Shown here: positions 6,592-26,900 of the stretch, one piece after another | How positions within the stretch are numbered: the stretch's first letter is position 1 | Layout of the letters: every line of letters starts with the position of its first letter | NCBI RefSeq assembly: GCF_023333585.1 | Contig: NZ_JAIQZN010000080.1 | Coordinates: 685 to 32,684, forward strand | Reading direction: 5' to 3' | DNA length: 32,000 nt | Source: Argonema antarcticum A004/B2 | GTDB lineage: Bacteria; Cyanobacteriota; Cyanobacteriia; Cyanobacteriales; Aerosakkonemataceae | The notes under the pieces: generated by a model | The model's database searches: none | What the model was told of the DNA's origin: nothing | The model's input: only the letters and a program-made list of their open reading frames with translations | Program-made: the position numbers and the translations under genes

Positions 6592-6596
6592 ATTAA

Positions 6597-7383: not shown

Positions 7384-7821
7384 ATGAATCCCGTGAGTTC
7401 TTATGAGTTAGATAGAGAAGTTTTCCAACTGCTGAATCCTGGAGAAGGACAATTAGATAATTGGCAGGGGGCGGCAAGTGGCATTGCTGATTATGTAGCT
7501 AGTTGGGGTGTGGAACGCTTTTGGGCGATGTCGCGATCGCGAGTGTTATTAGGTGGCGAAATGCCCAATGCTGCAACGGGTTCCGATGAGGAAAAGCGTT
7601 ATTTTGCTTGGGGTGTAGCGCGGGTAGTTTTGTGCAAAATTGTCGGTACTGATTTGCGGATTGAAAAAACAATGACAACTGAAGCGTTTCAGAATCGCTT
7701 TCGAGAATTGGATTTTAATCAGCAGGTTTTGTTGACTGATTTGTTGATGGAAATTTCGGATACGATTCAGTTTTGGACAATGCGATTGAAGGATGCTAAG
7801 AAGTGTAATACGCAGGTTTGA
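7384..7821 (+). CDS. cmr5: Cmr5-like small subunit (Cas11)
   Basis: 145-aa ORF directly after cmr4 and the last gene of the operon. The call rests on size and position; no motif was seen. Confidence 0.5.
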   Translation: MNPVSSYELDREVFQLLNPGEGQLDNWQGAASGIADYVASWGVERFWAMSRSRVLLGGEMPNAATGSDEEKRYFAWGVARVVLCKIVGTDLRIEKTMTTEAFQNRFRELDFNQQVLLTDLLMEISDTIQFWTMRLKDAKKCNTQV

Positions 7822-8849: not shown

Positions 8850-10364
8850 TCAACATTGCCATACAACCTGGAAACCTTTACTTGTCAGCGTCGCTTCCAC
8901 AGCTTGATCAAATACAGTAATCAAACAATAATTCTCATATTGTCGCACCGCATAACCAGATGGTCGAGTCTCAGAATTTCCACACCATTGGGGGCGATTT
9001 GTGGCTGTGGTACTGCAAACTTTATGCACGATATCTCGCCATTTATCTCCTTTTCCCTGCCAAATACTAATCAGAGAACCAGAAACTATTGCTGGCTTTG
9101 ACATCGCACGCCAACCATAATTTTCACCTAATTTTGCGATTAGTTCCCGCAAACGCTTAATTAACTCATTCAAAGGTTCTTCCAAATTAACTGGCGTAAC
9201 AGTAAATTCACTACCCCGAAAACCATAAAAACGTTCTAAAACGTGGGGTGGTCTGCGCCAACCTGGGCCAAGTCCACCAAGGCGACTAGCTAAAGCAAGC
9301 AATCCACCAATTAAAGGTTTAAATTCTTCATTGCAATCAACACTAATTATCCAAGTTGCGTGTGCTTGACGAGCCGGAATATTAGTATAATCATTGGAAG
9401 TTTGACCGAGCATTCTGGGAATAGATTGCAAATAGCTAGTTAAAGTTAATTTAGCCGGACAACCCAAACCTCCAAATATTTTATCAGTCAGTTTTAAGGC
9501 AGTTTCCTGCGAAAACAAAGATAATGCCAATCTGGTAAAGTAACCGCGTAAATTAGCCCGCAATACTTGAGGCGTCCAGCGGTATTGTCCGGTTTGATTT
9601 TCCCCTGGTTTGTGACTTTGGACGCAAGGTTTCATTCCGGTGAGTTGAATCTCCCAATTTCCTGAAGGAATAAAGGGCGCTAATCGACCAAAACCCGATG
9701 CTTTTCCCCGTCCGATTCCTTGGAATTGCAGCATTTCTTTTAAGCGTGTTTCCAGCCAAGTTTTTTGTTCTTTGCTAGAAGTATCTTTCAGTAAAACTTG
9801 CAAGCAGAATTTATCGAAATTCGGACTGGGAGGTTTAGGAGATACTTGCCATTGAATGCCTAAATTCTTACTTTTTTCGTCAAATAACTGCCATTTTTGT
9901 TGAGCGTTTAATGGATAAGGTTTGAGGTTTTTTAGTAGAATGGTTTCAAAGCGAATTTTGCGGGGTAGCCAGTGAGTGCGATCGCTTGCCAGCAAACTTT
10001 GCCAAAAAGCTTGTTCTTCACTCGGTAAATCATTCCATTTTCCCTGAATCCAACTTAGCAAAGCGCCCCTAATGCTAGAACCGGGAATGCAGGGAACACC
10101 GCCAATTTGGGCGGGTAAAATACCTCCTTCTGGAAAACTACCCCCACCAACTTGAATCGGACTAATAATTTGCAATTTGTCCAAACGTACCGTGTAAGCA
10201 TCAGCATTTTTGGGCGAATAACTTCCTTTTGTATCCCAAGCATCAATAATTATGGCAGAATCTTCTTTACCTTCAATAATATCCTCAGTTTTCGGTGTCC
10301 AGCCTCTTTCTTTTGTCTCTTCAACTGTGTACCATTGGGGCATTTCTTCAGGTAATAGCGCCAT
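8850..10364 (-). CDS. Two-RAMP-domain protein: Cmr6-like N-terminal half, Cmr1-like C-terminal half
   Basis: 504 aa. The first RAMP has GGVPCIPGSSIRGALLSW and the glycine loop QGIGRGKASGFGRL. The second RAMP has LRANLRGYFTRLAL, IFGGLGCPAKLTL and LGGLGPGWRRP. No separate cmr1 or cmr6 occurs elsewhere in the window. Confidence 0.6.
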   Translation of the reverse strand: MALLPEEMPQWYTVEETKERGWTPKTEDIIEGKEDSAIIIDAWDTKGSYSPKNADAYTVRLDKLQIISPIQVGGGSFPEGGILPAQIGGVPCIPGSSIRGALLSWIQGKWNDLPSEEQAFWQSLLASDRTHWLPRKIRFETILLKNLKPYPLNAQQKWQLFDEKSKNLGIQWQVSPKPPSPNFDKFCLQVLLKDTSSKEQKTWLETRLKEMLQFQGIGRGKASGFGRLAPFIPSGNWEIQLTGMKPCVQSHKPGENQTGQYRWTPQVLRANLRGYFTRLALSLFSQETALKLTDKIFGGLGCPAKLTLTSYLQSIPRMLGQTSNDYTNIPARQAHATWIISVDCNEEFKPLIGGLLALASRLGGLGPGWRRPPHVLERFYGFRGSEFTVTPVNLEEPLNELIKRLRELIAKLGENYGWRAMSKPAIVSGSLISIWQGKGDKWRDIVHKVCSTTATNRPQWCGNSETRPSGYAVRQYENYCLITVFDQAVEATLTSKGFQVVWQC

Positions 10365-10671: not shown

Positions 10672-10968
10672 TTAATCAAGCGGACAAAGTAACCTCCAAA
10701 GCGGTGTGGGAATGTCCTCAAAATGTTCTAGCAGAAAGTCCATAATTGCCAGATGGCGCAAATCGTTAGGATGGGGATTTCTGCCTAAATCTCCTTGTTT
10801 AAACCACCCGCGCACGGTAGACTCGGAACGAGAACAAATTAAAGCTATTTGTTCGTAAGTTACTGCCCATTTATTGTAAAATTGTCTGGGTGTCATCCCT
10901 AATTGGCAATGGCTGTACAATTGAATCAAAGTTAATTCTCGTTCCTGTAAAATTCGAGGTTTATTCAT
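10672..10968 (-). CDS. Small helix-turn-helix protein
   Basis: 98 aa with an HTH-like segment VTYEQIALICSRSESTVRGWF. It sits inside the cas block, downstream of a toxin-like ORF. Confidence 0.5.
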   Translation of the reverse strand: MNKPRILQERELTLIQLYSHCQLGMTPRQFYNKWAVTYEQIALICSRSESTVRGWFKQGDLGRNPHPNDLRHLAIMDFLLEHFEDIPTPLWRLLCPLD

Positions 10969-11121: not shown

Positions 11122-11391
11122 CTAATGACTATCAATAGCCATCACCCAAATGGTTTTACCCTCTTTGTATTTCCAGTAAAAACGCAAAGCCATCGAAGCA
11201 GAAGAACCCCAAATTTCGCCTTTTTTCTGTTTATATCGATGAGTCCTCAAACTTCTGTAATTTGGCCCTTCTGCTGCTAAAAGTTGGAAAGCTTTATGGT
11301 ATTGTTTTTGCGTTTTTACTGAAAATACCGCCAATTGCTTTTTTACTTTGGGAGTGACAATCACCTCAAATTGGATGGCTTGATAGTCCAT
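11122..11391 (-). CDS. RelE/HigB-like toxin-fold protein (putative)
   Basis: 89 aa. The C-terminal pattern SLRTHRYKQKKGEIWGSSASMALRFYWKYKEGKTIWVMAIDSH resembles the RelE/ParE/HigB consensus: L-x-x-H-x-L-K-G, W-S, R-(I/F)-x-(F/Y), and a terminal H. Confidence 0.4.
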   Translation of the reverse strand: MDYQAIQFEVIVTPKVKKQLAVFSVKTQKQYHKAFQLLAAEGPNYRSLRTHRYKQKKGEIWGSSASMALRFYWKYKEGKTIWVMAIDSH

Positions 11392-11460: not shown

Positions 11461-11739
11461 CTAAACGATGAAAGCCGCATCATCTACTGCAAAGTCTGGC
11501 TTTATTCCTAAGACCGCTACTTTGCAACGACAGGGGTCGGATAGGGGATAAAATCTGAGTTGGTCTTCTTTGGAATTGAGTATTTTGAACAACCGTTTTT
11601 GAATGTTCTCGTACTGCTTTTCATCCAGTACCGCCTCGAATACCGACTTCTGCACTCGCAATCCGTAAGTTTCTAATAATTTAGAAACTTTATAGCGGCG
11701 ACTATCATCTACGATGTCATAGCAAATGAGGTAAAACAT
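11461..11739 (-). CDS. cas2: Cas2
   Basis: The sequence MFYLICYDIVDDSRRYKVSKLLETYGLRVQKSVFE.. is typical of the Cas2 ferredoxin fold. The ATG at 11739-11737 overlaps the cas1 stop (TAATG). The longer track ORF to 11880 runs inside cas1. Confidence 0.9.
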   Translation of the reverse strand: MFYLICYDIVDDSRRYKVSKLLETYGLRVQKSVFEAVLDEKQYENIQKRLFKILNSKEDQLRFYPLSDPCRCKVAVLGIKPDFAVDDAAFIV

Positions 11740-12803
11740 TACACTTTTACCAGTATTCGCTGTTCTGTTGGCTGATTGCTGACAGGAGAGATAGCAGTAT
11801 CGGTATCCCATTTCAGCAGCATGGGGCGGTAGAATTCTACATCGCCTAACAAGTAAGCAATGTATTCTTGTACTTGCCATGCTAAACAGCGACGGTAGCT
11901 GAGTTTTCCTGCATATAAATGAGTCACTTCAGTTTGCAGCTTTTCTTCCCAATGCTTGATAAACTTTTTCAACGTAGCAGGATATAGAGATATTGCGTCC
12001 TGTTGGGAAGGTCGGGTAAAATCGTCAGGTGTCAGAATTTGCGAAATTGCCAAATTTGCCACTAATTCGTCTACCAAGAAAGGACGAAATTCGACGGCGA
12101 AATCTTCAATCAAAGATAGTTCATCTTGGCAATAAAAATGCAGGTTGCCGAAGTTGGGATTGAGTCCGGCTGATTGTACAAATCCGTAAATGGTATGATT
12201 TAGCAGGGCATTACCCAGGCGTAACACGCTGTTAATGGAGTGGGAGTGAGGGCGACAAGTACACTGGAAGTTGAAAGCTTTTGCGAGTAACTCGGTGATG
12301 GCTTGATAGTACAAAGAAGCGGCTGTAGTTGAGTATTCCCGCAGTGCGTGGATAGAATCTGCCATCGGCAAATCATCGATTAAAAGGTCTAGCATTTCCA
12401 TCGCTATTTCTGCTTTGGGAGTGGAATGATTTGCACTCAAGCGCAACAGAACGATGCCACAGTTATGCAGGTAAGCGCGGACGATGCTTTCAGCTATGGT
12501 TTTGGGAAAGTTGGGGTTTTGGGCGCGTTTGATTTGCTGGGGAAAGTATTTGGCAGGATGTAGCGATTCTAGTTGTAAGCGTCCTAAATAGTTTCCTTGG
12601 TTGTCGAGGAATAGGACGGGAATTGCCAGAGATTGAGCTAAAGATGCGGCGTTCGGTTGTAAGTGGCAATTACCGAATAGAGTAATTTTGCTTACTTGGG
12701 AAGAATGCACTTGCAGGCACAGTTTGTTTTGGTGGAATACTTGGAAGTAATGATGTTTTACTTTTAAGCAAGTGCCTGGTTCGGTCATGTAGATTGCTGT
12801 CAT
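11739..12803 (-). CDS. cas1: Cas1 without RT, a paralogue of the Cas1 domain of the RT-Cas1 fusion
   Basis: 354 aa. Along its length it parallels RT-Cas1 residues 332-665, for example MTAIYMTEPGTCLKV vs MTTLYVTDQGAYLSI, FGNLH in both, and FIKHWEEKLQTEVTH vs FLKHWEEKLQSELTH. Acidic and His active-site positions are retained (REYS, GNLH, IEDFAVEFR). Confidence 0.9.
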   Translation of the reverse strand: MTAIYMTEPGTCLKVKHHYFQVFHQNKLCLQVHSSQVSKITLFGNCHLQPNAASLAQSLAIPVLFLDNQGNYLGRLQLESLHPAKYFPQQIKRAQNPNFPKTIAESIVRAYLHNCGIVLLRLSANHSTPKAEIAMEMLDLLIDDLPMADSIHALREYSTTAASLYYQAITELLAKAFNFQCTCRPHSHSINSVLRLGNALLNHTIYGFVQSAGLNPNFGNLHFYCQDELSLIEDFAVEFRPFLVDELVANLAISQILTPDDFTRPSQQDAISLYPATLKKFIKHWEEKLQTEVTHLYAGKLSYRRCLAWQVQEYIAYLLGDVEFYRPMLLKWDTDTAISPVSNQPTEQRILVKV

Positions 12804-12842
12804 AATTTGCTTTTAAACTCTACATTCCTATCTTCTCAACCG

Positions 12843-12900
12843 GGTATTTGAGTTGGTATTTGAGTACGCATATTAGTATATGAGTTGGTATATGAGTTGG
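12843..12900 (-). promoter_or_regulatory. 2+2 set of 12-bp direct repeats upstream of cas1
   Basis: Units are GGTATTTGAGTT (12843), GGTATTTGAGTA (12855), a 9-bp gap, GTATATGAGTT (12876) and GGTATATGAGTT (12887). A candidate -10 (TAGAGT on the minus strand, 12817-12822) lies about 20 bp downstream. The block is paralogous to 16386-16444. Confidence 0.6.
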
Positions 12901-12978
12901 CGATTTGGTCAAAAATGGTTTTTTAGTTTTTATTTTGTAGGTAGAGAAAGAGAATCGCTTTTACTCCGCAACATTAAA

Positions 12979-13206
12979 TATAGCTAGTGACTAGGGAAGA
13001 GGAAAAAGGGTTAAGGAGTAAGAGATGGAAAGACCAAAGGTAAGAGTTGGAGTTGTCCTAATCGCCAAGGTGGTTGCTATAGCTAGGGACTAGGGGCTTT
13101 CTTGCTAGGGGCGAGCGTTGAGGGAGAGGGAAGAGGTTACTCCGTAAGGGATTATGGACTTCATGTAACAGTTGGAGTTGGCTTAATCGCCCTGGCGGTT
13201 GCTATA
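12979..13206. repeat. Degenerate tandem duplication (units of ~99 and ~125 bp)
   Basis: TATAGCTAG(T/G)GACTAGGG occurs at 12979 and 13078. AGTTGGAGTTG.C.TAATCGCC..GG.GGTTGCTATA occurs at 13045-13082 and 13169-13206, matching at 33 of 38 positions. Confidence 0.7.
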
Positions 13207-13213
13207 TATTACA

Positions 13214-13244
13214 GTCCCCAGGATAAGCAGATTATCCTGGGGAC
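13214..13244 (-). terminator. Strong hairpin at the trailer end of array 2
   Basis: GTCCCCAGGATAA (13214-13226) pairs with TTATCCTGGGGAC (13232-13244), a perfect 13-bp stem with a 5-nt loop. It lies 6 nt beyond the last repeat in the transcription direction. There is no clear U-tract. Confidence 0.5.
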
Positions 13245-13250
13245 AATTGG

Positions 13251-14102
13251 GTTTCAACACCTTTTCTCTTCAGTAAGAGTCAATCGTGAGTACAAATGGT
13301 ACATGGACGATAGCCCTTGGGTAGAGGTTTCAACACCTTTTCTCTTCAGTAAGAGTCAATCCAGCATTTGCTGGTAACGACCCGTATGAAAAACTGATGG
13401 GTTTCAACACCTTTTCTCTTCAGTAAGAGTCAATCTCTTTTTAACAGACCAAAAAGTTGGTGGAGCTTTATAAAGTTTCAACACCTTTTCTCTTCAGTAA
13501 GAGTCAATCATGGAGACACTGTAATTTGCGCAGGTTCCGCGGACGAACAGTTTCAACACCTTTTCTCTTCAGTAAGAGTCAATCTTTGCAATGGTAATTT
13601 CTATGATTGCCAGTGGAACAGTTTCAACACCTTTTCTCTTCAGTAAGAGTCAATCAAGAGCTACCAGGGTGGGCGGTAACCGTCTGCCCTGAAAGTTTCA
13701 ACACCTTTTCTCTTCAGTAAGAGTCAATCCGGGAGCAAATCCAGGAGCGGCGGCAACAGCAAAACAATCGCGTTTCAACACCTTTTCTCTTCAGTAAGAG
13801 TCAATCCAGCAATAGGGTTGGTCGGCACTGGTGTCGCTTGGGGAATGTTTCAACACCTTTTCTCTTCAGTAAGAGTCAATCAATCTTGATAAAATTGAGA
13901 AAAAAGCAGAGGAAGCAAGTTTCAACACCTTTTCTCTTCAGTAAGAGTCAATCTTGTCTGGTTTTGATAGTCTTAGCTGGGCCCGCCGGCCTAGTTTCAA
14001 CACCTTTTCTCTTCAGTAAGAGTCAATCAGTGGCAAACCGACTCGACGCACGAGTCAGAAGCAGCTTGTTTCAACACCTTTTCTCTTCAGTAAGAGTCAA
14101 TC
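13251..14102 (-). CRISPR. CRISPR array 2: 12 repeats of 35 bp, 11 spacers of 36-42 bp
   Basis: Repeats start at 13251, 13327, 13401, 13475, 13550, 13621, 13695, 13772, 13847, 13919, 13994 and 14068, and all are identical. The + strand reads GTTTCAACACCTTTTCTCTTCAGTAAGAGTCAATC. The transcribed form is GATTGACTCTTACTGAAGAGAAAAGGTGTTGAAAC. Confidence 0.97.
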
Positions 14103-14340
14103 CCTTAGCTTCTAGAAGCCAAGCGTTGAGCTAATTCTACACCGCCAGATCTGAGGGGGTCAAGTTGGACGATCGAAAACGAGACAATTCTTCTCAATAA
14201 CCCAGAATAACACCCACCTTAAACCCTTACCCAGAGAGCTATCCGAGGGGGTCAACGAAAGAATGAGGGTTTCAGCGATCGACTGACCCTCTCAGATGCT
14301 TATTATTAGGACGAATATTGATAAGCTTTGCTAATCAAGT
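14103..14340 (-). promoter_or_regulatory. Leader of array 2
   Basis: It lies between the RT-cas1 stop and the first repeat. Conserved blocks are AAACCCTTACCCAG (14221-14234), GTTTCAGCGAT (14269-14279), and the inverted pair ATCTGAGGGGGTC (14149-14161) / GACCCTCTCAGAT (14285-14297). Confidence 0.7.
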
Positions 14341-16338
14341 TCACAGAGTCCAAATCATCGGACGGTAAGTATCAACTTCCCCCATCAAACAAGCAACATA
14401 TTCCCGCACCTGCAACTCCAAACAGCGGCGAAAACTGACTTTGTATCCAGTATGCGGGTGCGTCAATTCCGACTGCAATTTTTCTTCCCAATGCTTCAAA
14501 AACTTTTTTAGCGCATGAGGTTGCAGAAACACGCCACCACGTTCATCTGGCAACGTAAAATCCTCCGATGTGAAAATTTTAGAATTAACCAAATAAGACA
14601 CCAAAGAATCTACCAACTGCGCCCGAAACTCTTCCATCAAATCCGAAACCAATGCCGGATGATTATCGCGAGGAACGTGCAAATTACCGAAATGAGTATG
14701 CAGTCCAATCAATTCGATAAAAGAGCAAACATTTTGACTCAGCAGCGTATATCCCAAACTCATCAAACTGTTAATTGGGTCGGTAGGAGGGCGCTTTGTT
14801 CGCTTTTCAAATGCAAAAGTTCCAGTAAACAGAGAACCCAATGCTTGAAAATACAAAGTGGCTGCTTTTCCTTCATATCCCCGTAACGCATCCATCGATT
14901 CAGCATCAGGTAATTTCTCCATCAATTCAGCAATTGATTCCAGGGATTGCAAGGCAATTTTGCTGGGACGACGACGATTTAATTTGAGCAATAAAGCGCG
15001 GGAATTATGTAATTTAGCCCAAACAATGGCTTCTGCTTGCCGTCGCGTGAATTCAGGATTTAGAGAACATTCAACCTGCCGTGCCAAGTATTCCACCTTC
15101 GCGTGTCCGTCCGTTTGCAAACGCCCGAAATAGCGGCCTTTCTGGGAAAGATACATGACCGGAATTCGCCGCCGCAAAGCACAAGATACCGCTCCGTGCG
15201 ATAAATTGCAACAACCGAATAAGACAATATGGCTGACCCGATTGGCTGGCACTTTAATCCGCAACTCCCGCTGATAGAAAACTTCAAATTGCTGGTTATG
15301 AATGCTCAAGTAAGCACCTTGGTCAGTTACGTACAAAGTAGTCATGGGTTCCTTCCAAAAATGTTCGGTATTGGCAATGGGAAAGTTAATAGGTTTGAGT
15401 AAGCTACAAGCTTTGGGAGGTTGGGAAAAAACGGGAGTTTTTCGAGCTTTTTGTTGATAAGGCATCCCGGAATCCCGGAGTGCGAGTCCTCCTAGTTGAG
15501 GAGGTGGCGGCGGAATTAATTCTCCTTTAGAAAAGCGATAACCTAGAAAAGTAAACTCTTCATCGGGAGTGAAAATATGGGTTTTTCCCGGTTGAAGCTT
15601 CAGATAGATATCGCCCAACCATTGGTTAATTTGTGACAAAGCGCGATTAGCTTGTATCCAATCGCCAGATGCAATGACAAAATCATCGCCATAGCGCACC
15701 AAATTAAATCCCTTACTCAAACAAAATCGATCGAATTCGGTGAGGTACAAGTTAGCTAAAGCACCGGAAAGAATGGCACCTTGCAATACTCCCTGACCGA
15801 AATTTCGGCGAACAGCACCAATTACGATGTCGGATTTTAGTTGCTGTTCGATTAATTGCAGTAAAATAGGTTCTAGCTGCAATTGCTCTAAGTCGGTTAG
15901 CAGTAACGCCCAGCAGAGGTTGTCGAAAAATTTCTCAATATCTGCCTTGACAATCCAAGTGGGTTGGAACTGATAATAGGAATACAGATGTTTGACTGCC
16001 ATCTGAATTCCCCGACCGGGACGGTAAGCGTAGCTGCAATCGAGAAATCGTTCTTCAAGGGGGAAGTAAAGTTCGTTCAGCAGCAGGCGAGAGACAATTC
16101 TATCCCGCACTGTCTGAATGCCAACCAACCGCTTACCACCACTCGATTTGGATAGATAAAATCCTTTGGCGGGACTAACCGTGTAGGTTTCGTTTTGCAG
16201 TCGATGGTGTAAAATTTGTAACTGCTGACGAGCAATTGGGGCAAATAAATCGGTGGTAATACCATCAATACCAGCACTTTTACTTCCCTTGCGAACTTGT
16301 TCCCAAGCAATCTGGAGAAGTTCTGGGGTTAATTCCAT
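14341..16338 (-). CDS. Reverse transcriptase-Cas1 fusion
   Basis: 665 aa. The N-terminal half has group II intron-like RT motifs: YAYRPGRG, KADIEKFFDNL, GVLQGAILSGALANLYL, the YxDD box RYGDDFVI (Tyr codon at 15693-15691), LKLQPGKTHI and FTFLGYRF. A proline linker PPPPPQ follows. The Cas1 domain starts at residue 332 (ATG at 15345). There is no N-terminal Cas6-like domain. Confidence 0.93.
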   Translation of the reverse strand: MELTPELLQIAWEQVRKGSKSAGIDGITTDLFAPIARQQLQILHHRLQNETYTVSPAKGFYLSKSSGGKRLVGIQTVRDRIVSRLLLNELYFPLEERFLDCSYAYRPGRGIQMAVKHLYSYYQFQPTWIVKADIEKFFDNLCWALLLTDLEQLQLEPILLQLIEQQLKSDIVIGAVRRNFGQGVLQGAILSGALANLYLTEFDRFCLSKGFNLVRYGDDFVIASGDWIQANRALSQINQWLGDIYLKLQPGKTHIFTPDEEFTFLGYRFSKGELIPPPPPQLGGLALRDSGMPYQQKARKTPVFSQPPKACSLLKPINFPIANTEHFWKEPMTTLYVTDQGAYLSIHNQQFEVFYQRELRIKVPANRVSHIVLFGCCNLSHGAVSCALRRRIPVMYLSQKGRYFGRLQTDGHAKVEYLARQVECSLNPEFTRRQAEAIVWAKLHNSRALLLKLNRRRPSKIALQSLESIAELMEKLPDAESMDALRGYEGKAATLYFQALGSLFTGTFAFEKRTKRPPTDPINSLMSLGYTLLSQNVCSFIELIGLHTHFGNLHVPRDNHPALVSDLMEEFRAQLVDSLVSYLVNSKIFTSEDFTLPDERGGVFLQPHALKKFLKHWEEKLQSELTHPHTGYKVSFRRCLELQVREYVACLMGEVDTYRPMIWTL

Positions 16339-16385
16339 TTACCTCCTGGGACTGTTGAAACTCTATATTTCCATCGTTGCAGCCC

Positions 16386-16444
16386 GGTATATGAGTTCGT
16401 GTATGAGTATTTGACTTATGTATATGAGTTGGTGTATGACTTGG
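16386..16444. promoter_or_regulatory. 2+2 set of 12-bp direct repeats in the RT-cas1 / HTH-NACHT divergent intergenic region
   Basis: Units are GGTATATGAGTT (16386), CGTGTATGAGTA (16398), a 10-bp gap, GTATATGAGTT (16420) and GGTGTATGACTT (16431). A candidate -10 TAGAGT (minus strand, 16360-16365) and an AGGAGG Shine-Dalgarno sequence precede the ATG at 16338. Confidence 0.6.
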
Positions 16445-16463
16445 ATAGAGTTTTGAAGAATTG

Positions 16464-19400
16464 ATGGCAAAGCGATCGCTGCAAGCATCAGAGTCAGGTA
16501 TCCAGCAAGTTAAACTTGCCTTGGAACGTCGTCAGTTGACTCAAAAAGCTTTTGGCGAAGAATTAGGCATTGCTTGGTCAACCATCAGCAAGTTTTTTAA
16601 CGGGAAACGGATTTATAGGACAATTTTTCTGGAAATTTGCCACAAACTGAGCTTAGATTGGCAAGAAATAGCAGGGGTAGAAATCGCAGGTGGTGATGAA
16701 ACCCCATCTCAGCTGCTAGGAGATGTCCGCCGCTACGCCGCTATTGCTAGAGATGCGCTTAATCCTCGCATTTTAGAAAGAATCGAGCGTAAAATTGTCG
16801 GTGAAAAATATATAACTGCGATTCAACGCGGTGTCAGCAACGTGCAACAAAGAGTTGTACCGATTATTGCACCTGCGGGATACGGGAAAAGTACAATTTT
16901 AGGAAATATATACGACGAACTGATTAAAGCAGAAGTAAGCTGGGTAGCACTTGTTTTGTGCAACTCTTTGAGTATCGAATCGACACCAACGGCGGAAAAG
17001 TTAGCGTTAGCTTTGGGTGAGACAGCTAGCGGTAAACAAATATCGATCGCGCAATTAGTTACCGATTTAACGGTTGAATGCGGTAGGGGTGTGCTGTTAA
17101 TCGATACTTTGGATTTAGTTTTAAATCGCCATTTGGCAACAGCTTTTACCACCGTACTCCGACAACTAATGGATGCAGGTGCAACGGTGGTTTTTACTTG
17201 TCGCGATCACGAATATAATGATTTTTTAGAACCCCCCCGCGAAAAGATGGCAGCGATTAGCGATACGATCGATCGCTATAACGTTCCTACATTCGATCGG
17301 GCCGAAATCAGAGAAGCTGCTGCGACATTTTTCCACAAGTCTCAAACTACTACGCCAGAAATAGGGTATACTTTTGCCGATCGCATTTTAAGTTTATCTG
17401 CCGATAACCGTCCGCTACAAGAAATCACTTGCAATCCCTTATTGTTAGCTTTACTTTGCGACTTGTTCGCCAAAGATGGTAATGTTCCAGCCGATTTAAC
17501 CGTTAGCAAACTCTATCAAAGATATTGGCACGAAAAAATTGCTTACAGTCGCATTGATGATAGTCATACTTCCCTGTTAGCGATCGAAAAAGAAAATTTT
17601 TGTCTCGCCTTCGCCAAATCCCTATTTCAAATGTCGGCTGAAAAACTTTGCGAATCAGCTTACCGAGACGAACTGGGAATTAATTTTACCGAAATAGTTG
17701 CTACGGCTTACGATAATTTATTAAGTGAAGGGGTAATCGAACGTTTACTTTCTACGAAAATCCACTTTTTTCACCAAACTTTATTAGAATATACCATAGC
17801 TTACTGGCTAACTAGACATAGCGCCAAAGAATATCGTTATCAACTATTGCAAATTAGTCAATCAGATGATAGTACTCGCACTTATTGGTTTCCAATTATC
17901 CGCCAGCTTTTGACGATCGTAGATGAATCGGACTTTGAAGAAATTGTTAATAAATTAGATATCAATCGAATAGCAGCCTTTCGCGCGATCGCTTTTGCTG
18001 CTACTTCTCGTAGTGAAGAACAACCACTTTTAAAGTTATTACCAACTGCGCTAGCGCGAGGTAGCGCTTATCAAAGAATATTGTATCGCGCTTTAGCTTC
18101 AGCTTCCGTACCTTTGCAAGAAACAGCATGGAATTGTTTATTGACTATTCTACGAGAAGGCGATCGGGCCACTGCTTCTAGCGCCGCCCAAACTATTGGT
18201 GCTATGCTAAATCCCTGGGGGACATCTCTAAGCGATCGTCTCGAACAAGCTATTAATGCTATATCCCAGCGTACTGCAAGTAATGATAACATTAATGAGC
18301 GATCGCAGCTTTATGGTTGGTTAGTTGATGCAGTTAACCCAATAATTACTGAAAATATTGATAACGAAGCATTAACTATCTTAGGCAAACATTATTTCAA
18401 GTTTTCGGAAGGAACTCGGACGACAGTTATTTGTTTTCACTTAATACCAGGAGTGACTCTGACCGCGCAAGTAGAATTATTCAATATGATCAAAACTGAG
18501 CCTTTACCCAAACGCACCGAGTTTAAATTCAAACAAGAGTTAGCTAAATTTTTAGCCGTTACCTTACCAACCCAAATCGAAAAATCTCCCTTACCGCCAA
18601 CAGATGCTTGGCTGGATAGCCTGCACCATCCCATTCAGTCTGGTTTCGATTTAATTCAAGCTAAAGCGATCGGTCAGTATGCTACTACTAATTCTAACTT
18701 ATTAACTGCTATTCTGCAAGACTTTATTACTGGAGATAAAAAAAATACAAATAATAACTTATTTGCTTTAATAGAAGCCATAAGTTATGGTGCTAGCCAT
18801 CAAATAGCATCGGCATTAATTAAAATTGACCATCTCCCTTCAGAGCGGGTTAAATCGGTAATTACACTTTTGAAAGAGATGAATAATACCCTCGATTTAA
18901 GTCAGCGTGAATCTTTGGCGAACTGGATAAAACCGATCGCGATTGAGCATCCCGAACAATGGTTGCCTACTCTGGCTGACTTAGCCTCAGATTCTTTAAA
19001 GGTACAACAGTTAGTTATAGAACTTTTCTCCACTTTACCTGAAGAAAAGCAAAGTTTAATCCTTAATAAAAACTTGCTAATATTGATTCCAGAGTTATGG
19101 CAAACCCTATCACATAAAGACGCTAATAGCCAAGTTAATTTAGTATTGGTTAAAGTTTATCGAGAAACTGCTCAAACCAATGATTCGGATATTAGCAAAT
19201 TAATTGAATTAGCAATCAAATCTGGCAAAAAGGCAGCAATCTCAGCGGCAGAAGCTATTTTTAGCTTATCTAAAGAGCGAAAGTTACCCAATTTTAAAGA
19301 CTTATGGGATTTAAGTAATTCTACCTTTCCAGGGGTTAGACTAAATTATTTATCAAGTATCAAAAGCCAGATAATCCAATGGAATGTAGCACTCCAAGAA

Positions 19401-19934
19401 TCCGAACTTACAGAAATCTGTTCCCAGTTTGGTAATGAAACAGAACCACAAGTAATCCAACAGTTATGTGAATTAGTCGCTATTTGGGTGGATCTAAATA
19501 AATACGTTCCTTTAAAAGTAGCAGAAATTATTGGTAATATTCCCACTCGCTTATCTGCACTCGGAATATTAGAGGGAGGAGTTGCAGGTGCAACGATCGA
19601 TACTCTAAACGTGATGGCACAACTTCCAAATACCTCTTTAACTCCTCTAGTTGTAAATTGGACGCGACAGCTTTTACATCAAATAGATATGAAAAGAGTT
19701 CAAGAGTCAAAAGTGGTCGATTTATTAGGTTCGGTGGCAAGAATTGATTCTAGCTTTTTGCCTGACGCAGTTAATGAATATTGTCCATCATTACCAACTA
19801 GAAACCAACGCATTGTAGCTTTAGCTGTTAGAAGAGTCGAAGGTGTTGACTCGCCTTTACTGGATTGTTTATTGACGAGGGAGTGGACTGACGCCGAAGT
19901 CAAGAATTTGATTTTAGAATGGAGAGGGGTATGA
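16464..19934 (+). CDS. HTH (XRE-like) - NACHT/STAND NTPase - helical-repeat protein
   Basis: About 1156 aa counted from the ATG at 16464; the track starts one codon earlier at a TTG. The N-terminal HTH is LTQKAFGEELGIAWSTISKFFNGKR. Walker A is IIAPAGYGKST, Walker B-like is GVLLIDTLDLV, and the sensor-like motif is VVFTCRDHEY. The C-terminal ~600 aa appear helical with HEAT/ARM-like periodicity. Confidence 0.75.
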   Translation: MAKRSLQASESGIQQVKLALERRQLTQKAFGEELGIAWSTISKFFNGKRIYRTIFLEICHKLSLDWQEIAGVEIAGGDETPSQLLGDVRRYAAIARDALNPRILERIERKIVGEKYITAIQRGVSNVQQRVVPIIAPAGYGKSTILGNIYDELIKAEVSWVALVLCNSLSIESTPTAEKLALALGETASGKQISIAQLVTDLTVECGRGVLLIDTLDLVLNRHLATAFTTVLRQLMDAGATVVFTCRDHEYNDFLEPPREKMAAISDTIDRYNVPTFDRAEIREAAATFFHKSQTTTPEIGYTFADRILSLSADNRPLQEITCNPLLLALLCDLFAKDGNVPADLTVSKLYQRYWHEKIAYSRIDDSHTSLLAIEKENFCLAFAKSLFQMSAEKLCESAYRDELGINFTEIVATAYDNLLSEGVIERLLSTKIHFFHQTLLEYTIAYWLTRHSAKEYRYQLLQISQSDDSTRTYWFPIIRQLLTIVDESDFEEIVNKLDINRIAAFRAIAFAATSRSEEQPLLKLLPTALARGSAYQRILYRALASASVPLQETAWNCLLTILREGDRATASSAAQTIGAMLNPWGTSLSDRLEQAINAISQRTASNDNINERSQLYGWLVDAVNPIITENIDNEALTILGKHYFKFSEGTRTTVICFHLIPGVTLTAQVELFNMIKTEPLPKRTEFKFKQELAKFLAVTLPTQIEKSPLPPTDAWLDSLHHPIQSGFDLIQAKAIGQYATTNSNLLTAILQDFITGDKKNTNNNLFALIEAISYGASHQIASALIKIDHLPSERVKSVITLLKEMNNTLDLSQRESLANWIKPIAIEHPEQWLPTLADLASDSLKVQQLVIELFSTLPEEKQSLILNKNLLILIPELWQTLSHKDANSQVNLVLVKVYRETAQTNDSDISKLIELAIKSGKKAAISAAEAIFSLSKERKLPNFKDLWDLSNSTFPGVRLNYLSSIKSQIIQWNVALQESELTEICSQFGNETEPQVIQQLCELVAIWVDLNKYVPLKVAEIIGNIPTRLSALGILEGGVAGATIDTLNVMAQLPNTSLTPLVVNWTRQLLHQIDMKRVQESKVVDLLGSVARIDSSFLPDAVNEYCPSLPTRNQRIVALAVRRVEGVDSPLLDCLLTREWTDAEVKNLILEWRGV

Positions 19935-20955: not shown

Positions 20956-23900
20956 ATGTCCACTTTTGAGATCGGGTTACTAAATAACTCCTACAACACA
21001 GCAGATGCCCTTGGAGTTGCCTATCCATCTGACAAGTATAGCTTTACACTTGGAGATACTCAAAATTTAAAGTTATCCTTAACGGGTATCAGTACGATTG
21101 TAGACTGGCAACTCAAAAACAGCGATGGAGCAACTCTGCACAGTGGCTCAGTTAGTCCCACCAACTTAGAAGGAATTAATATTGGTAATTTGTCAGCAGG
21201 GGAATACTCTCTTGAGCTTTCCCAAACAAATAGCGATACCAACTATGCTCTCAACATTGACCCCCTGACTAAGTTGAATGTAGAATCGGGATTTTTTACT
21301 GTCGGACAAACGGGACAAATAGGGGTTGATTACTTAACTGACGGCGGTTGGTATCAGAGCGAGTTGGCCATTTTCAGTTTGACGGGAATGGAGGCATTTT
21401 CTCCAGGCTCGCAAGCTTTTATTAAAGAAGCTGCGAGAAGGTCACTGACCAATTCAACAGAAGGTTACGTTGTTATTGCAGACGCTACAGAAGGAGCCAA
21501 GTTCAGTCCCACTTTTCCTTGGGGAGATAATTATAACAATGGCGAATACAAAAATATAAAGACATTTGCCATGAAACCTGGGGATAATTTTGGCTTTATG
21601 CTTGTTCCCAATGGCACCGCACAACAGGTATTTAATAATCCCAATATAGGTGGAGCAAAGCGTCCTTTATTCTCTTTGGTAACAGCTAACCCGAATGAGG
21701 CGTTTCACGTCGGTCAAATTGCGGATGTAATCGGCGATGGCAAAACTTTTGTTATGGAGGATAAGAGAGTTGATGAAGGTTCGGATAAGGATTATAACGA
21801 TATAGTTTTTCGAGTAACTGATGCTACAGGAAAAGCAGTTAAGTTAGATGATGTAATTGCTCCCGATAAAGATTGGCGCAAAACTAAGGTAGTGGATGAT
21901 TTAATTGCTTACATCAATACGCCTCCTCAGTTTTTGCAATTCACCACCAAGACACTCTATAAAGCAGGTGAAGCGATCGATCTTACTGATGCTAAAGTTT
22001 ATGACGAAAATCGAGACTTGACCAAAGTAAATTTCTGGTTAAAGAGAAAGGAAGAGGTAGACTGGGTTGATATCAAAGATGCGACTAAAGATGCTTTCAA
22101 AGTGAATGAAGACTGGACAAGCTTCAATTACTCTTTCAGAGATTTAGTAGGGGGTAGTTACGAACTGAAGGCGATCGCATTCGACGAGCGGCAACAAAGC
22201 AACGAGGTAATTAAGGAGTTTCGGGTCAATGCCGCTCCGAAAGAACTGCAATTTATTATTCCACAAGATACTTACGATATCGGAGAAACGGTAAGTATCA
22301 CTGGAGGTAAAGTGTATGATGCTGACGGGGTGGATGACTTAGTTAAAGTAGGTTTCTTTTTAAAGAAAGGCAATAATAGTTGGCAAGATATTACTGCCGA
22401 TGTCACCAGTTTTACGGCTGGTAGTGGAGATAATAATTTAGCAAACTTCACCTACTCCTTATCACCAAATTTATTAAAAGAGGCTGGCACTTACGAGATC
22501 AAAGGCGTAGCTTACGATCTAGCAGGTGATTCCAGTAATGAGGTAATTAAGAACTTTACCATCCGCAGCAAAACTGTCGAACCATCACCCAACTCGCCGC
22601 CCGAACAATTGCAGTTTAACTTATTACCATCTTACACGATCGGTCAACCAGTCAGCATTACGGGTGGAAAAGTATACGACAAAAATGGTGAGAGCGACCT
22701 GAAATCAGTAGATTTAGAGCTATACAAAGATAACGTTTTTTTGAACAAATATACTGTAGCGATCGCGGATGATAATCAAAGTGGAGACGGCTGGGGAACT
22801 TTCAACTATTTGTGGAGCGATTTATCAGAAGGGAATTATCGCTTAGAGGCGAAAGCTTTCGATGGAGTGGAATACTCTGCTAAAGTAAGCCAAAGCTTTT
22901 CCGTCATTAGCGAACCTGTCGCCGAGCCAGTACCCAATTCGCCACCTGAATTCTTGCAGTTTAACTTATTGCCATCCTACAAAATTGGTCAGCCAATCAC
23001 CATTATGGATGGAAAAGTATACGACAAAAATGGTGAGAGTGACCTAAAATCAGTAGATTTAGAGCTATACAAAGATAACGTTTTTTTGAACAAATATACT
23101 GTAGCGATCGCGGATGATAATCAAAGTGGAGACGGCTGGGGAACTTTCAACTATTTGTGGAGCGATTTACCAGAAGGGAATTATCGCTTAGAGGCGAAAG
23201 CTTTCGATGGAGTGGAATACTCTGCTAAAGTAAGCCAAAGCTTTTCCGTCATTAGCGAACCTGTCGCCGAGCCAGTACCCAATTCGCCACCTGAATTCTT
23301 GCAATTGAATTTATTGCCATCCTATACAACAGGTCAAGCAATCACTTTCACAAACGCGAAAGTATACGATAAAAATGGAGAGGGCGACCTAAAAGAGGTA
23401 ACTTTAGAGTTATATAAAGATAACAATTTTTTGGGCAATTATACAGTCGGTATTGTGGATGATAGTCAAAGTGGAGATGGCTGGGGAACTTTTAACATTT
23501 CTTTTAATCAGCTAGCAGAGGGAAATTATCAGATTAAAGCATCCGCTTACGATAAAGCGAATACCGAAAGTAATAAAGCAGTTCAAAACTTTACCGTAGA
23601 GGCAGACAAACCGCCACAGCCTAACAGAGCGCCTGGATCTTTAGATTTTAGCATTCTGCCTCTCTACGTTAATGGTGAGACACTAAGCTTTAGTGATGGG
23701 AAAGTTTATGATCCAGATGGAGCTAGAGACGTAGATAGAGTATATTTTTGGTTGGGTACAATTGGTGGCGAACAAGTTGACGCGATCGAAGTTTCTGAAT
23801 TTACTCCTGATAACAAGGGTAACGCTAGATTTGATTTCAATTACGACTTGAGTAAATTAGCACCAGGACGCTACCAATTGTGGGCGATCGCAACTGACAA

Positions 23901-26900
23901 ATCGGGAGATTATAGCGAACCAACAATCCAAACTTTCTCTATTACCACTGATGCGGGAATCAAGGGATTATCGGATGAAGAAAGATTAGCTATGCTAGAT
24001 GCGGCTAAGCTGGAAAACTATACTCCCGAACAATTAGCTGCAACTCGCGAATGGGTAGTTTGGGTAACGCCGGGTCAATCTTCAGCAGAGTTAGCAACAG
24101 CAGTAGAAGCGCAAGATAAGGGTGCTACTGGATATATTCCAAATACATACATTTGGGAATTTCCCGATACTATTCCTCCCGAAGAAGTTATTCAAAGATT
24201 AAGTTCACTTCCTGGTTTGGAATTATCTTACCCGCTTGTTCCCGTACCGACAACTTTATCATCGACTCCAAACGACGAACCTTTAGTACAAAAACCAGGA
24301 ACTTTAAACCCAAGTTACCCAGTTCCCGATCCGAACGATACCAAACTTCGCGATTTTCTTAATAGTTACCAGTGGCATTTACGTAGTGGAGTGAACCCAA
24401 GTGCTGATGCTAATATCAGCAACGCTTGGAATTTAGCTCAAGGTAGGGGAGTAGTTATTGGTATTGTTGATGATGGGTTAGACTTTAACAACCCAGATTT
24501 GAAAGATAGGTATCGAGGAGATTTAAGCTGGGATTTTAATGAAAACAATAGCACTCCTTCGCCAACTTATAATAAAACCATTAGTTTGAAGAATACACCG
24601 AAATTAATCAGAGATTATGGGCAGACTAATATTTATTTAGATGTGCCTTTAACTGGGGTATTAAGTGATGTAAACGTGCGTTTAAATGCGACGCACGCCA
24701 AACTAAGCGATTTAGAGATTTCGCTGGATAGTCCCAACGAACCAATATTTAACCCTACTATTGGGATGGCATCTTCATCGTTTAGGAGAATACAAGGAGG
24801 AAATGGTTCCGGTAAAAACCCCGTTAAATTGTTTGATAATTTCATCGGTAATGGTGCTAATTTAACCAATACTATTTTCGATGACCAAGCAAGTTTATCA
24901 ATTTTGCAGGGAACAGCACCTTTTAATGGCAAATTTAGACCGTTAGGAACTTTAAGTGATTTTAACGATCAGTGGGCTGGGGGTACTTGGAATTTAAGAA
25001 TTACCGACAAAGCTTGGGTAGCTGCTGGTTTGTTAAGTAATTGGACATTGGATTTACAAACTTATAATCCTCATGGAACGGCTGTGGCTGGGATAGCAGC
25101 TGCTAGCGGTAACAATAGTATTAACGGAAGTGGAGTAGCGCCGTTAGCTTCTTTAGCTGGATTGCGGTTAGTTGCTGATGCGGTAACAGATGAACAAATA
25201 GCGATGGCATTAACTCATAAAAACCAAGATATCGACATTTATAACAACAGTCGGAAGCTGCAAGATTGGTTAGTTAAGCCAGCGCTAACTATGGCAGCAA
25301 TGAAAGAAGGAACTAATATTGGCAGAAGAGGATTGGGTAATAATTACGTATTTGGTGCTGGTAACGATGAGTGGACTGGCGGTAATGTTAATTACAATGG
25401 GTTGGCGAATTCTAGATATGCGATCGCAGTAGCAGCGATCGACCATACAGGCGAACAAACAATCTACAGCGAACCGGGCGCACCGTTGTTAGTTTCTGCT
25501 TACTCTAGCGGCAGTGGAGTTGGTATTACTACAACTGATTTAATGGGTAATAACGGTTACTCAACCGGAGATTATACTAATAGATTTGGCGGTACTTCCG
25601 CAGCTGCACCTTTAGTTTCTGGTGCGATCGCTTTGATGTTAGAAGCTAATCCAAATTTAAGTTGGCGCGACGTGCAACATATTCTAGTACGGACTACCAA
25701 GCAAAACGATCCGACTGACTTAGATTGGACTACCAATGGTGCGGGATATCACATCAATCATAAGTATGGTTTTGGGGCAATAGATGCGGATGCTGCTGTA
25801 CGTTTAGCTAAGAATTGGATATCAGCAGGGGATGAAGTAATGATTAGTTCCAATCTCCAAAACGTGCTAGAAAATATTCCCGATGGAGACGAACAGACGG
25901 GTGTAAATTCAACAATTAGCATTAATGACGATATTTCTATTGAAAAAGTAGAGGTGTTATTTGATGCTAATCATAATGATTGGAAAGACTTGCAAATAAT
26001 GCTAATTTCTCCTGATGGTACGCAGTCAATTTTAGCTGATTATATACCCGCTAACCCAAGTGCAACTACTACCAACAGGTTAACGCCTTTATCTAACATT
26101 TGGACTTTTACTTCTGCGCGTCACTGGAGCGAGTCTTCTAAGGGAGAATGGAAATTGCAGGTTTTCGATCGGGAGGGGAACCAAGTTGAGGGCAAGTGGA
26201 ATTCTTGGAAATTGAATATTTATGGAACTAAACCAATAGTAACAGTGAGTGCTACTGATGCCAATGCTTCAGAAGATGGCGATCCGGGTGAGTTTACGAT
26301 TACCCGTACTGGTAATAACAAACATCCCCTGACCGTGAATTATTCTTTGCCGGGAAGTGCTAAGAATGGTTCAGATTATACTGCGCTTGGCAATATTGTT
26401 ATCCCGGAAGGACAGTCTACGGTAAAAATTAAGATCGATCCGATTGACGATTTGCTGTTTGAAGGAAATGAGGATGCGGTTATCAGTTTAGCTGCTAGCA
26501 GTGCGTACAATATAGGAACACAGGGAAGTGGAGCAGTGACGATCGCAGATAATGATATTCCAACTGAACCCTGGATACGTCAGATAGGGACTGTAACTGA
26601 CTGGGATATGTCTCGCGGTACAGCTATTGACAGCACTGGTAATGTCTATATGGCTGGAATCACATTTGGATCTCTAGATGGCAACGTTAACGCTAGTGGA
26701 ATTAATACCAGCTGGGCAGATCCTTTTATCACCAAATACGATGCCAATGGCAACAAACTTTGGACTCGTCAGTTAGGTTCTTCTGGCTATGACTACTACA
26801 ACGGTGTCACTGCTGACAATACAGGCAATGTCTATACAGTGGGATACGATGATGGTCTTGGTACTGTGTTGGGTGGTGTCACGCTCATCAAGTGGGATAC

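Follow-up and report, generated by a model that had tools for sequence, protein, structure and literature searches.

The 32,000-nucleotide stretch of the Argonema antarcticum A004/B2 genome analysed here (hereafter the window; RefSeq assembly GCF_023333585.1, contig NZ_JAIQZN010000080.1, positions 685 to 32,684) carries a type III-B CRISPR-Cas system with two spacer-acquisition (adaptation) loci: a gene for a reverse transcriptase-Cas1 fusion (RT-cas1) and a cas1-cas2 pair. Directly 5' of each stands one of two collinear segments of about 90 nt, module A (RT-cas1) and module B (cas1-cas2), both with four 11-bp direct repeats. Judged from sequence comparisons, the modules probably represent a shared operator and promoter cassette bound by the protein that carries HTH-X, the N-terminal helix-turn-helix (HTH) domain of the product encoded divergently from RT-cas1; we give this reading a probability of about 0.65.

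Two paralogous repeat modules in front of the adaptation genes

The initial annotation of this DNA had described the segments 16358-16444 and 12815-12900 as collinear paralogues, and this was confirmed with 74-77% identity (76% over 55 nt, 77% as the mean column value of a MAFFT alignment, 74% over the 86-nt core). The array of two plus two units with a 9-10-nt gap, which it had placed before both cas1 genes, is also present there. Read on the gene strand, each module consists of U1, one nucleotide, U2, the gap, U3, one nucleotide, U4, four nucleotides, a conserved 16-nt box and the hexamer TAGAGT. The gene-strand consensus of the unit is AACTCATATAC, and that of the box, which lies between the proximal unit and TAGAGT, is CTGnRAMnATnRARWT. 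The features of the two modules and of the genes next to them are as follows.

Module A
16464-19934, plus strand: HTH-X-STAND protein gene, 1156 aa, divergent from RT-cas1
16446-16451, plus strand: outward TAGAGT, 3 nt beyond U1 and 12 nt before the HTH-X-STAND ATG; candidate -10
16387-16442, minus strand: unit array (U1 16442-16432, U2 16430-16420, U3 16409-16399, U4 16397-16387)
Unit letters: GTATATGAGTT at 16387-16397, GTGTATGAGTA at 16399-16409, GTATATGAGTT at 16420-16430, GTGTATGACTT at 16432-16442
16367-16382, minus strand: conserved box CTGCAACGATGGAAAT, starting 4 nt downstream of U4
16360-16365, minus strand: TAGAGT (ACTCTA on the plus strand), ending 21 nt before the RT-cas1 ATG
16347-16342, minus strand: Shine-Dalgarno sequence AGGAGG of RT-cas1
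14341-16338, minus strand: RT-cas1 fusion gene, 665 aa, ATG at 16338

Module B
12844-12898, minus strand: unit array (U1 12898-12888, U2 12886-12876, U3 12866-12856, U4 12854-12844)
Unit letters: GTATTTGAGTT at 12844-12854, GTATTTGAGTA at 12856-12866, GTATATGAGTT at 12876-12886 and at 12888-12898
12824-12839, minus strand: conserved box TTGAGAAGATAGGAAT
12817-12822, minus strand: TAGAGT (ACTCTA on the plus strand), ending 13 nt before the cas1 ATG
11739-12803, minus strand: cas1, 354 aa, ATG at 12803

The units start at 0/12/33/45 in module A and at 0/12/32/44 in module B. With 10.5 bp per turn these positions correspond to about 0, 51, 51 and 103 degrees, so that all four units look to roughly the same helical face, and the half-turn offset proposed earlier was wrong. 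Module A possesses a fifth, degenerate unit, GTATTTGACTT at 16407-16417, which overlaps U3 and matches a conserved '..AGTCAAT' in the gap of the RT-cas1-type modules; this unit and the 16-nt box had been absent from the initial annotation. Eight of the 11 matches of GTATWTGAGT in the window (at most one mismatch) fall inside the two stretches of about 60 nt, while 3.8 would be expected in the whole 32 kb.

The RT-cas1/HTH-X intergenic region measures 125 nt (16339-16463) and is almost wholly taken up by module A. Since the HTH-X ATG follows only 21 nt beyond the distal unit, the promoter of the HTH-X gene must overlap U1/U2.

Occurrence of the module in sequenced genomes

The exact pattern of two adjacent units (dimer) was scanned in one genome per species of 185,579 species, and later a position weight matrix scan, a metagenome scan and a strict search for the 2+2 layout in all retrieved DNA were carried out (retrieved loci are designated by L numbers). 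The dimer pattern was found at 52 loci, about 29 of them from filamentous cyanobacteria of genera such as Microcoleus, Nostoc, Scytonema, Fischerella, Tolypothrix, Coleofasciculus and Dulcicalothrix. At 28 of these 29 the motif immediately precedes a homologue of cas1 or RT-cas1 and is collinear with it; the homologues have 31-90% amino-acid identity. The remaining, approximately 23 non-cyanobacterial matches are about as many as calculated for chance; none is accompanied by cas genes and the 2+2 layout is absent from them.

Additional modules, missed by the exact pattern, were recovered with the weight matrix, and the metagenomes contained seven more full modules and no further module free of cas genes. 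The strict search gave 37 distinct modules, all in filamentous cyanobacteria. In every one of the 36 with visible context the cas1-family gene stands on the box side and starts 29-384 nt after U4 (480 nt in the disrupted locus L024). Wherever one of the loci examined has both RT-cas1 and cas1, each gene has a module of its own, without exception. A common dispersed repeat with no promoter association, the outcome named earlier as refuting, was thus not what was found, since 36 of 36 modules precede a cas1-family gene; a dispersed repeat or chance occurrence could be ruled out, as the non-cyanobacterial matches have neither the 2+2 layout nor cas genes.

One further array was considered and set aside. 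In an Okeania locus (L048) a satellite of the 12-mer AACTCAAATACC extends over about 0.9 kb (approx. 5937-6812). It is an unrelated coding low-complexity repeat inside an open reading frame (ORF) of more than 1181 aa, which has an N/T/S-rich low-complexity stretch and a CHAT-like C-terminus, and its resemblance to the units appears coincidental.

Conservation within the module

The 36 modules can be aligned without gaps over about 80 nt, and the flanks are not alignable. Information content was computed on 26 non-redundant modules (positions with a plus sign are counted downstream of U4):

U1: 1.65 bits per position
U2: 1.67 bits per position
Gap: 0.45 bits per position
U3: 1.38 bits per position
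U4: 1.57 bits per position
Box, +5 to +14 (CTGnRAMnAT): 1.09 bits per position
+15 to +20: 0.70 bits per position
TAGAGT zone: 0.50 bits per position
Flanks: 0.14-0.19 bits per position

Two box positions, A10 and A13, do not vary among the 26 modules, T14 is found in 25 of them, and +26 is a purine in 24. The units end 25-33 nt upstream of the point where conservation stops. Between modules, the spacing of block and ATG differs about ten-fold; this variable distance, together with the fixed one between units and box, fits a promoter followed by a free 5' untranslated region. The closest relative of the window is a locus of Floridaenema evergladense (L002), with 90% identity in RT-Cas1 and an identical CRISPR repeat. 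Each of the window modules is 84-86% identical to its own orthologue there and 74% identical to its partner in the window; by these values the duplication of the module is ancient.

The hexamer TAGAGT had been taken as a -10 element and the proximal unit as lying at the place of a -35. Neither assignment was supported. The TAGAGT zone reaches about 0.5 bit per position, its final T occurs in 8 of the 26 modules, and it is kept only in the window and the closest relative. The CTGnnA of the box resembles a -35 element, yet no TAnnnT follows 16-18 bp downstream, and the base after the near-invariant T at +14 is not A. On the HTH-X side a hexamer starting with TA is found 3 nt after U1 in most loci with a close ATG (L002, L010, L018, L021, L043). 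Neither an NtcA-like GTA-N8-TAC site nor sigma-54-type spacing was seen in the modules when they were inspected by eye.

Two features of the region between module and start codon were also recorded. In the Nostocales loci L010, L018, L022, L026, L028, L040 and L043 the spacer between the module and the ATG of RT-cas1 is expanded to 150-380 nt and ends right before the start codon in T-rich short tandem repeats of the 'CTTTTTA' type; in L013, L016 and L051 runs of the heptamer TTCTGAA stand in their place. At L055 (5273-6353) a short leftover of RT coding sequence still stands 5' of a cas1 that belongs to the RT-Cas1 clade. By this sign, the clade's solo cas1 genes (L055, L013, L016, L051, L083) seem to have lost the RT domain and retained the module.

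The HTH-X domain and the proteins that carry it

HTH-X comprises residues 1-70 of the 1156-aa protein (16464-16673) and follows the pattern M-x-x-RSL-x-AS-x-x-G-..-LTQ-..-[WY][ST]T[IV][NS]xFFNGK-..-EIC-x-x-L-x-LDW. Its AlphaFold model (pLDDT, the predicted local distance difference test, 86.5) has five helices at 10-22, 27-34, 38-45, 52-61 and 66-70. According to this model the domain has the Cro/C1 (XRE) fold, that is, a five-helix bundle with the helix-turn-helix at helices 2-3. The top 50 Foldseek matches in the PDB were mostly XRE-type domains with probabilities of 0.97-1.0, and target-normalised template modelling scores of 0.6-0.75 were obtained against stand-alone HTH proteins; the top neighbours HipB, VanUg, C.BclI, CylR2, ImmR and ClgR are all of the Cro/C1-XRE type (probability 1.0). 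In sequence the domain stays below the Pfam cut-offs (HTH_3 21.1 bits against 23, HTH_19 17.9 against 30.2, HTH_26 16.7 against 22), and sequence search of the PDB gave weak XRE matches (E 0.007-1.4). Exhaustive HMMER search revealed HTH-X as a divergent subfamily, a promiscuous N-terminal module in 790 representative clusters. Some of these proteins carry 2-7 tandem HTH-X copies, an arrangement which would suit direct-repeat targets.

The rest of the window protein has the Walker A motif APAGYGKST and weakly matches AAA_22 (28.1 bits, cut-off 27) and, below the cut-off, nSTAND_NTPase5 (26.7 against 34). Its orthologues are annotated as NACHT (weak) or nSTAND5 (faint). No PADLOC or NCBIfam match was obtained for the protein, nor any Pfam match for its C-terminal approx. 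700 aa.

A divergent HTH-X gene starts within 10-83 nt of U1 in 14 of 21 RT-cas1 modules; in three it starts within 280-542 nt, in two it is located elsewhere in the locus, and in the last two no HTH-X gene was found in the DNA examined. The divergent protein beside the RT-cas1 modules always starts with the HTH-X of about 70 aa, and only the HTH is conserved. The following bodies are attached to it:

DUF4384, about 250 aa (PF14326, E 2e-16)
TPR-CHAT, 1138 aa (PF12770, E 2e-52)
STAND NTPase (nSTAND5/AAA_22), about 1150-1230 aa with a long C-terminus without Pfam match (window, L036, L060)
NACHT or NB-ARC-TPR

Units were also found beside HTH-X where cas genes are missing. Locus L057 lies on a 45-kb contig. 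Here a small ORF and an HTH-X-NACHT gene are 73 nt apart, and the space between them is filled by the units GTATTTGAGAT...GTATATGACTTcGTATATGACTT. The 12.6-kb stretch examined contains no cas1, cas2, p89 or p98 (the last two being conserved small genes that follow cas2 in the window); dnaN, a DUF433/DUF5615 pair and ArsA are encoded nearby. At L056 a unit cassette of the same type stands on an NB-ARC-TPR body. The two loci (1-700 of L056 and 4650-5300 of L057) share the small ORF, identical intergenic DNA and the first ~100 codons, while the bodies differ (NB-ARC-TPR, 786 aa; NACHT, 864 aa). This points to a recent recombination at the linker, with a cassette-like shuffling of the presumed regulator head. 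At the non-cas paralogue L063 a single perfect unit stands 66 nt before the HTH-X ATG.

All unit-associated HTH-X domains carry the helix-3 sequence [WY][ST]T[IV][NS]xFF. Paralogues with the helix TRQS[IV]WKFF have no units, and none were found at the non-cas paralogues L058/L059 (inside a csx3 operon), L064/L065 and L066. As far as these sequences tell, the link between units and HTH-X is limited to the [WY][ST]T[IV][NS]xFF subgroup and does not extend to the whole superfamily. In one lineage (L060, 4595-4942; L061, 3635-3982) a gene for a four-helix protein resembling bAvd and the proteins of 23S-rRNA intervening sequences lies between the module and the HTH-X-NACHT gene.

Proposed mechanism

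Each module would serve as a directional operator and promoter for one spacer-acquisition transcription unit, and transcription probably starts within or just after the 16-nt box. The repeats would most likely be recognised by HTH-X, the XRE-fold domain at the N-terminus of the divergently encoded protein. U1/U2 cover about -16 to -38 of the putative HTH-X promoter, so their occupancy would repress HTH-X (autoregulation), and cas1-cas2-p89-p98 would be co-regulated through binding of this protein in trans to module B. We prefer a model in which a signal-dependent oligomerisation of the STAND part aligns several HTH domains head-to-tail on the four repeats. The bound oligomer would then activate the adjacent promoters that lack a -35 element, that of RT-cas1 and, in trans, that of cas1, and in this way gate spacer acquisition. 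The absence of a canonical -35 on the cas1 side, the distance of 25-33 nt from the units to the end of conservation and the purine at +26 are what would be expected with an activator that substitutes for the -35. A repressor that is released by a signal or by proteolysis is nearly as likely as the activator.

Several points weigh against the assignment of the modules to HTH-X. As a rule, HTH proteins of the XRE type bind as dimers to inverted rather than direct repeats. No HTH-X gene was found in the DNA examined at L013, L016, L051, L032, L055 (20 kb) and the cas1-type loci of Microcoleus; such modules could be served by the factor only in trans. The cas1-type modules are also accompanied by another conserved HTH protein, p98, and L056 and L057 together count as about one independent cas-free case. 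The promoter itself is also difficult to place. A consensus scan for TTGACA-like and TATAAT-like hexamers 16-18 bp apart gave none for RT-cas1 and, for cas1, a single weak 9/12 match inside U1 and U2 (12903->12875). Three registers of a canonical -35/-10 pair were tried on the cas1 side, and none has a conserved A at -11 plus T at -7.

A broader proposal can be put forward only tentatively, and we regard it as rather doubtful: innate-immunity-type sensors with one XRE head and interchangeable STAND-NTPase, NACHT, NB-ARC-TPR, TPR-CHAT or DUF4384 bodies may gate CRISPR memory in multicellular cyanobacteria. The sensing of an invader by STAND oligomerisation, or by proteolysis in the DUF4384/CHAT forms, would toggle the HTH at the four-repeat operator, and RT-Cas1 and Cas1-Cas2 would be made only during infection.

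Other possible functions of the repeats

Of the two regulators suggested in the initial annotation, the divergently encoded HTH protein remains the best candidate, as HTH-X is divergent at 14 of the 21 RT-cas1 modules and is accompanied by repeats without cas genes at L057. The other, the 98-aa HTH protein, is real and conserved but weaker. If the repeats were the operator of p98, possibly together with p89, a feedback like that of an antitoxin, an Aca protein or a restriction-modification controller protein would result. We consider this unlikely. The protein belongs to a tight, cyanobacteria-only family (about 155 clusters, 56-86% identity), its gene is in the cas1 operon at at least 12 loci, and L055 has two modules and p98 with no HTH-X within 20 kb. 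The model of p98 (pLDDT 91.2) gave weak HTH-type matches with C.Kpn2I, HigA2, Aca1 and the N-terminal domain of CapH, but with E values of 0.5-3 these are not significant. Moreover, the p98 gene is never adjacent to the units, both p98 and p89 are absent from L056 and L057 where units are present, and the hairpin-bearing spacers of 69 nt (cas2/p89) and 153 nt (p89/p98) may separate the genes into different transcription units. HTH-X is preferred over p98 as the binder because the units follow it without cas genes and track its recognition-helix sequence. A relationship of p98 to HTH-X was rejected (BLASTP E = 2.1).

The p89 gene follows cas2 in at least 10 related loci, and cas1-cas2 is regularly followed by p89 and p98 (L002, L017, L027, L028, L035, L041, L049, L050, L053-L055, L072, L075, L076). 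No Pfam, NCBIfam, PADLOC or PDB sequence match was obtained for p89. A HigBA-like type II toxin-antitoxin pair of p89 and p98 was considered and rejected: p89 is without a match, the genes stand 153 nt apart with a hairpin between them, and the fold of p98 is only weakly HigA/Aca-like.

Boxes of the OmpR/PhoB type typically consist of direct repeats spaced by about one helical turn, and certain modules have no HTH-X gene nearby. An unlinked host factor that favours tandem direct repeats, e.g. a response regulator of the OmpR/PhoB family, could therefore tie adaptation to a global signal. In Synechocystis 6803 a short direct-repeat pair 5' of the type III-Dv cas promoter is the activator site (HLR1) of RpaB, which is of the OmpR type and acts globally on more than 150 targets; RpaB thus controls a cyanobacterial type III cas operon (bioRxiv 10.1101/2023.12.07.570523). 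The likeness lies in the cyanobacterial host and in the direct repeats 5' of a type III cas promoter. However, HLR1 is (G/T)TTACA(T/A)(T/A) twice, 2 nt apart, with a 10-bp period and at an effector operon, whereas the module unit has a 12-bp period and a 2+2 layout and occurs essentially only at adaptation genes. The HLR1 pattern (at most 3 mismatches) has 15 matches in the window against 22 expected and none in 12804-12910 or 16339-16463, so that an RpaB/HLR1 site was ruled out for both modules. The occurrence of the dimer at cas1/RT-cas1 in 28 of 29 cyanobacterial loci is not the signature of a global regulon, and a global factor would leave the position of HTH-X beside the units, in spite of the swapped C-terminal bodies, without explanation. 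A host factor of this kind is therefore improbable.

It is very unlikely that the module acts as a DNA-level element, be it a docking site of Cas1-Cas2 or RT-Cas1, a leader-like remnant or the arm-type sites of a recombinase of a mobile adaptation cassette. The module always accompanies cas1-family genes, a 9-nt sequence between TAGAGT and the RT-cas1 Shine-Dalgarno sequence (GTTTCAACA, minus strand 16361-16353) equals the start of the CRISPR repeat in its plus-strand form, and the gap sequence 'AAGAGTCAAT' of some modules resembles the repeat end. But the 9-nt match is absent from the orthologous modules and is probably due to chance, the true leader (14103-14340), itself conserved from locus to locus, has no units, modules on one gene side only leave no second cassette end, and L057 has units without a cas gene. 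The fixed distance to the promoter-like box and the variable one to the ATG fit a promoter as well.

That the conserved block works as RNA, as a structured 5' leader or a small RNA, is barely credible: it is conserved and lies 5' of coding regions, but Rfam gave no match at E <= 1 in 12000-17000, the folding energies of both strands of both modules were no better than those of shuffled sequences (z = +1.0, -1.5, -1.2, +0.4), direct repeats cannot pair with one another, and in module A a promoter could not be accommodated ahead of the block in either direction.

Comparison with known regulators

In Sulfolobus islandicus spacer acquisition is triggered by Csa3a, which is encoded on the opposite strand beside the adaptation genes and binds at the promoters of csa1 and cas1 (Liu et al. 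2015, PMC4333418). As in the window with its candidate regulator, the regulator gene is divergent and two promoters have the same site. However, Csa3a, a CARF protein with a MarR-like winged HTH, belongs to a type I-A system of archaea and its site is an imperfect palindrome, whereas the window has a candidate XRE-fold HTH on STAND, CHAT or DUF4384 bodies, four direct repeats, and a bacterial type III-B system with RT-Cas1. No CARF or winged HTH domain was found in HTH-X-STAND or in p98, therefore neither is of the Csa3 type.

In its presumed overall design HTH-X-STAND resembles MalT and AfsR. These combine a DNA-binding domain, a STAND NTPase and a repeat-rich sensor; they oligomerise with ligand and ATP and bind cooperatively to repeated boxes, which adjoin promoters without a good -35. 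The HTH of MalT is C-terminal and of the LuxR type and AfsR has an N-terminal OmpR-type winged helix, whereas HTH-X is N-terminal, of the XRE type and joined to an nSTAND5/AAA_22-like NTPase, and its putative targets are CRISPR adaptation genes.

In the C-proteins of restriction-modification systems, in Aca and in CapH/CapP an XRE HTH is encoded beside the genes it controls; tandem operators overlap its own promoter, and the protein regulates both itself and an immune function. HTH-X resembles them in its XRE fold, as indicated by the Foldseek matches, and in its place beside putatively controlled immune genes. The C-proteins, Aca and CapH are small, stand-alone proteins that bind inverted repeats as dimers, unlike HTH-X with its large sensor or effector bodies and presumed direct-repeat sites.

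In type III-E systems Csx29 (TPR-CHAT), Csx30 and RpoE form a protease route with transcriptional output, and DUF4384 is one type of C-terminal domain of Csx30 (bioRxiv 10.1101/2022.08.17.504292). HTH-TPR-CHAT and HTH-DUF4384 among the HTH-X proteins may be taken as a lead only, as the homology is limited to domain types and the system here is III-B. HTH domains have been listed generically as effector modules of NTPase conflict systems, with no link to cas1 or an operator (Kaur et al. 2020, PMC7159879), and the cyanobacteria-specific RT-Cas1 branch was defined with no discussion of its regulation (Silas et al. 2017, PMC5513706). In our literature search no description was found of the motif or of a link of HTH-DUF4384 or HTH-STAND to cas1.

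Other features of the locus

The type III-B operon of the window opens with genes for a CorA-like protein and the CARF-HEPN protein Csx1, accessory effectors of the signalling type according to PADLOC. The remaining genes and elements are listed below.

80-1933, plus strand: CorA-like protein gene, first gene of the type III-B operon
1935-3398, plus strand: Csx1 (CARF-HEPN) gene, identified with PADLOC; the sole CARF protein in the window
3395-5605, plus strand: Cas10/Cmr2 gene (type III-B)
5572-6591, plus strand: Cmr3 gene (type III-B)
6597-7370, plus strand: RAMP protein gene (type III-B)
7384-7821, plus strand: Cmr5 gene (type III-B)
8850-10364, minus strand: Cmr6 gene
10672-10968, minus strand: p98 gene, for a conserved 98-aa helical HTH-like protein, last of the cas1-cas2-p89-p98 set
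11122-11391, minus strand: p89 gene, for a conserved small protein of no described family
11461-11880, minus strand: cas2
13251-14102, minus strand (probably): CRISPR array, 12 identical 35-nt repeats
14103-14340, minus strand: CRISPR leader, filling the interval from the array to the RT-cas1 stop codon

The flank 14103-14340 is 88% conserved over 201 nt in L002, and this conservation identifies it as the CRISPR leader and indicates that the array is probably transcribed on the minus strand. A core of 60-90 nt (about 14215-14297 in the window) is found again right after RT-cas1 or solo cas1 at almost every related locus, often with a second, inverted copy beyond the HTH-DUF4384 gene. The leader contains GAGGGGGTCAA twice (14149-14163 and 14241-14255) and a promoter-like TTGACC-18-TAGAAT at 14163->14134. 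The ORFs 13102-13377 (91 aa) and 13838-14134 (98 aa) are spurious, being artefacts of the repeats within the array. On the trailer side the flank 12899-13250, which has no counterpart in the related loci, shows internal duplications (13040-13081 is like 13165-13206, and 12979-12996 like 13078-13095), and a perfect 13-bp hairpin (13214-13244) abuts the last CRISPR repeat.

HIP1 sites (GCGATCGC) are present in the window. Downstream of the HTH-X-STAND gene a 2276-aa secreted-type protein with S8 peptidase, P-domain, Calx-beta, DUF4114 and beta-propeller repeats is encoded at 20956-27786, and its gene contains 2.7 copies of a 345-nt tandem repeat (22587-23500). An IS630-family transposase at 28703-29649 is encoded in two overlapping ORFs, one with an HTH (130 aa) and one with DDE_3 (220 aa), probably as the result of a frameshift.

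Significance

Few dedicated regulators of spacer acquisition are known to us, Csa3a being the main example, and to our knowledge nothing is known of the regulation of RT-Cas1 systems. The activity of Cas1-Cas2 is risky for the host genome, and RT-Cas1 systems can record RNA. Dedicated regulator-operator pairs for CRISPR adaptation genes are already known as a kind, and the present motif with its HTH-X link would be a new variant. The analysis provides a cis-element that is clearly delimited, highly conserved and present at either adaptation promoter, and a candidate regulator with an immune-type STAND, CHAT or DUF4384 sensor body. About 30 culturable or sequenced strains are suited for its study, e.g. 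Fischerella muscicola PCC 7414, Dulcicalothrix desertica PCC 7102 and Nostoc punctiforme NIES-2108. If the proposed regulation is true, it would offer a handle for on-demand RT-Cas1 spacer acquisition, useful in RNA-recording tools, and it would constitute in bacteria a direct regulatory wire from innate-type sensing to the adaptive acquisition of spacers from RNA and DNA.

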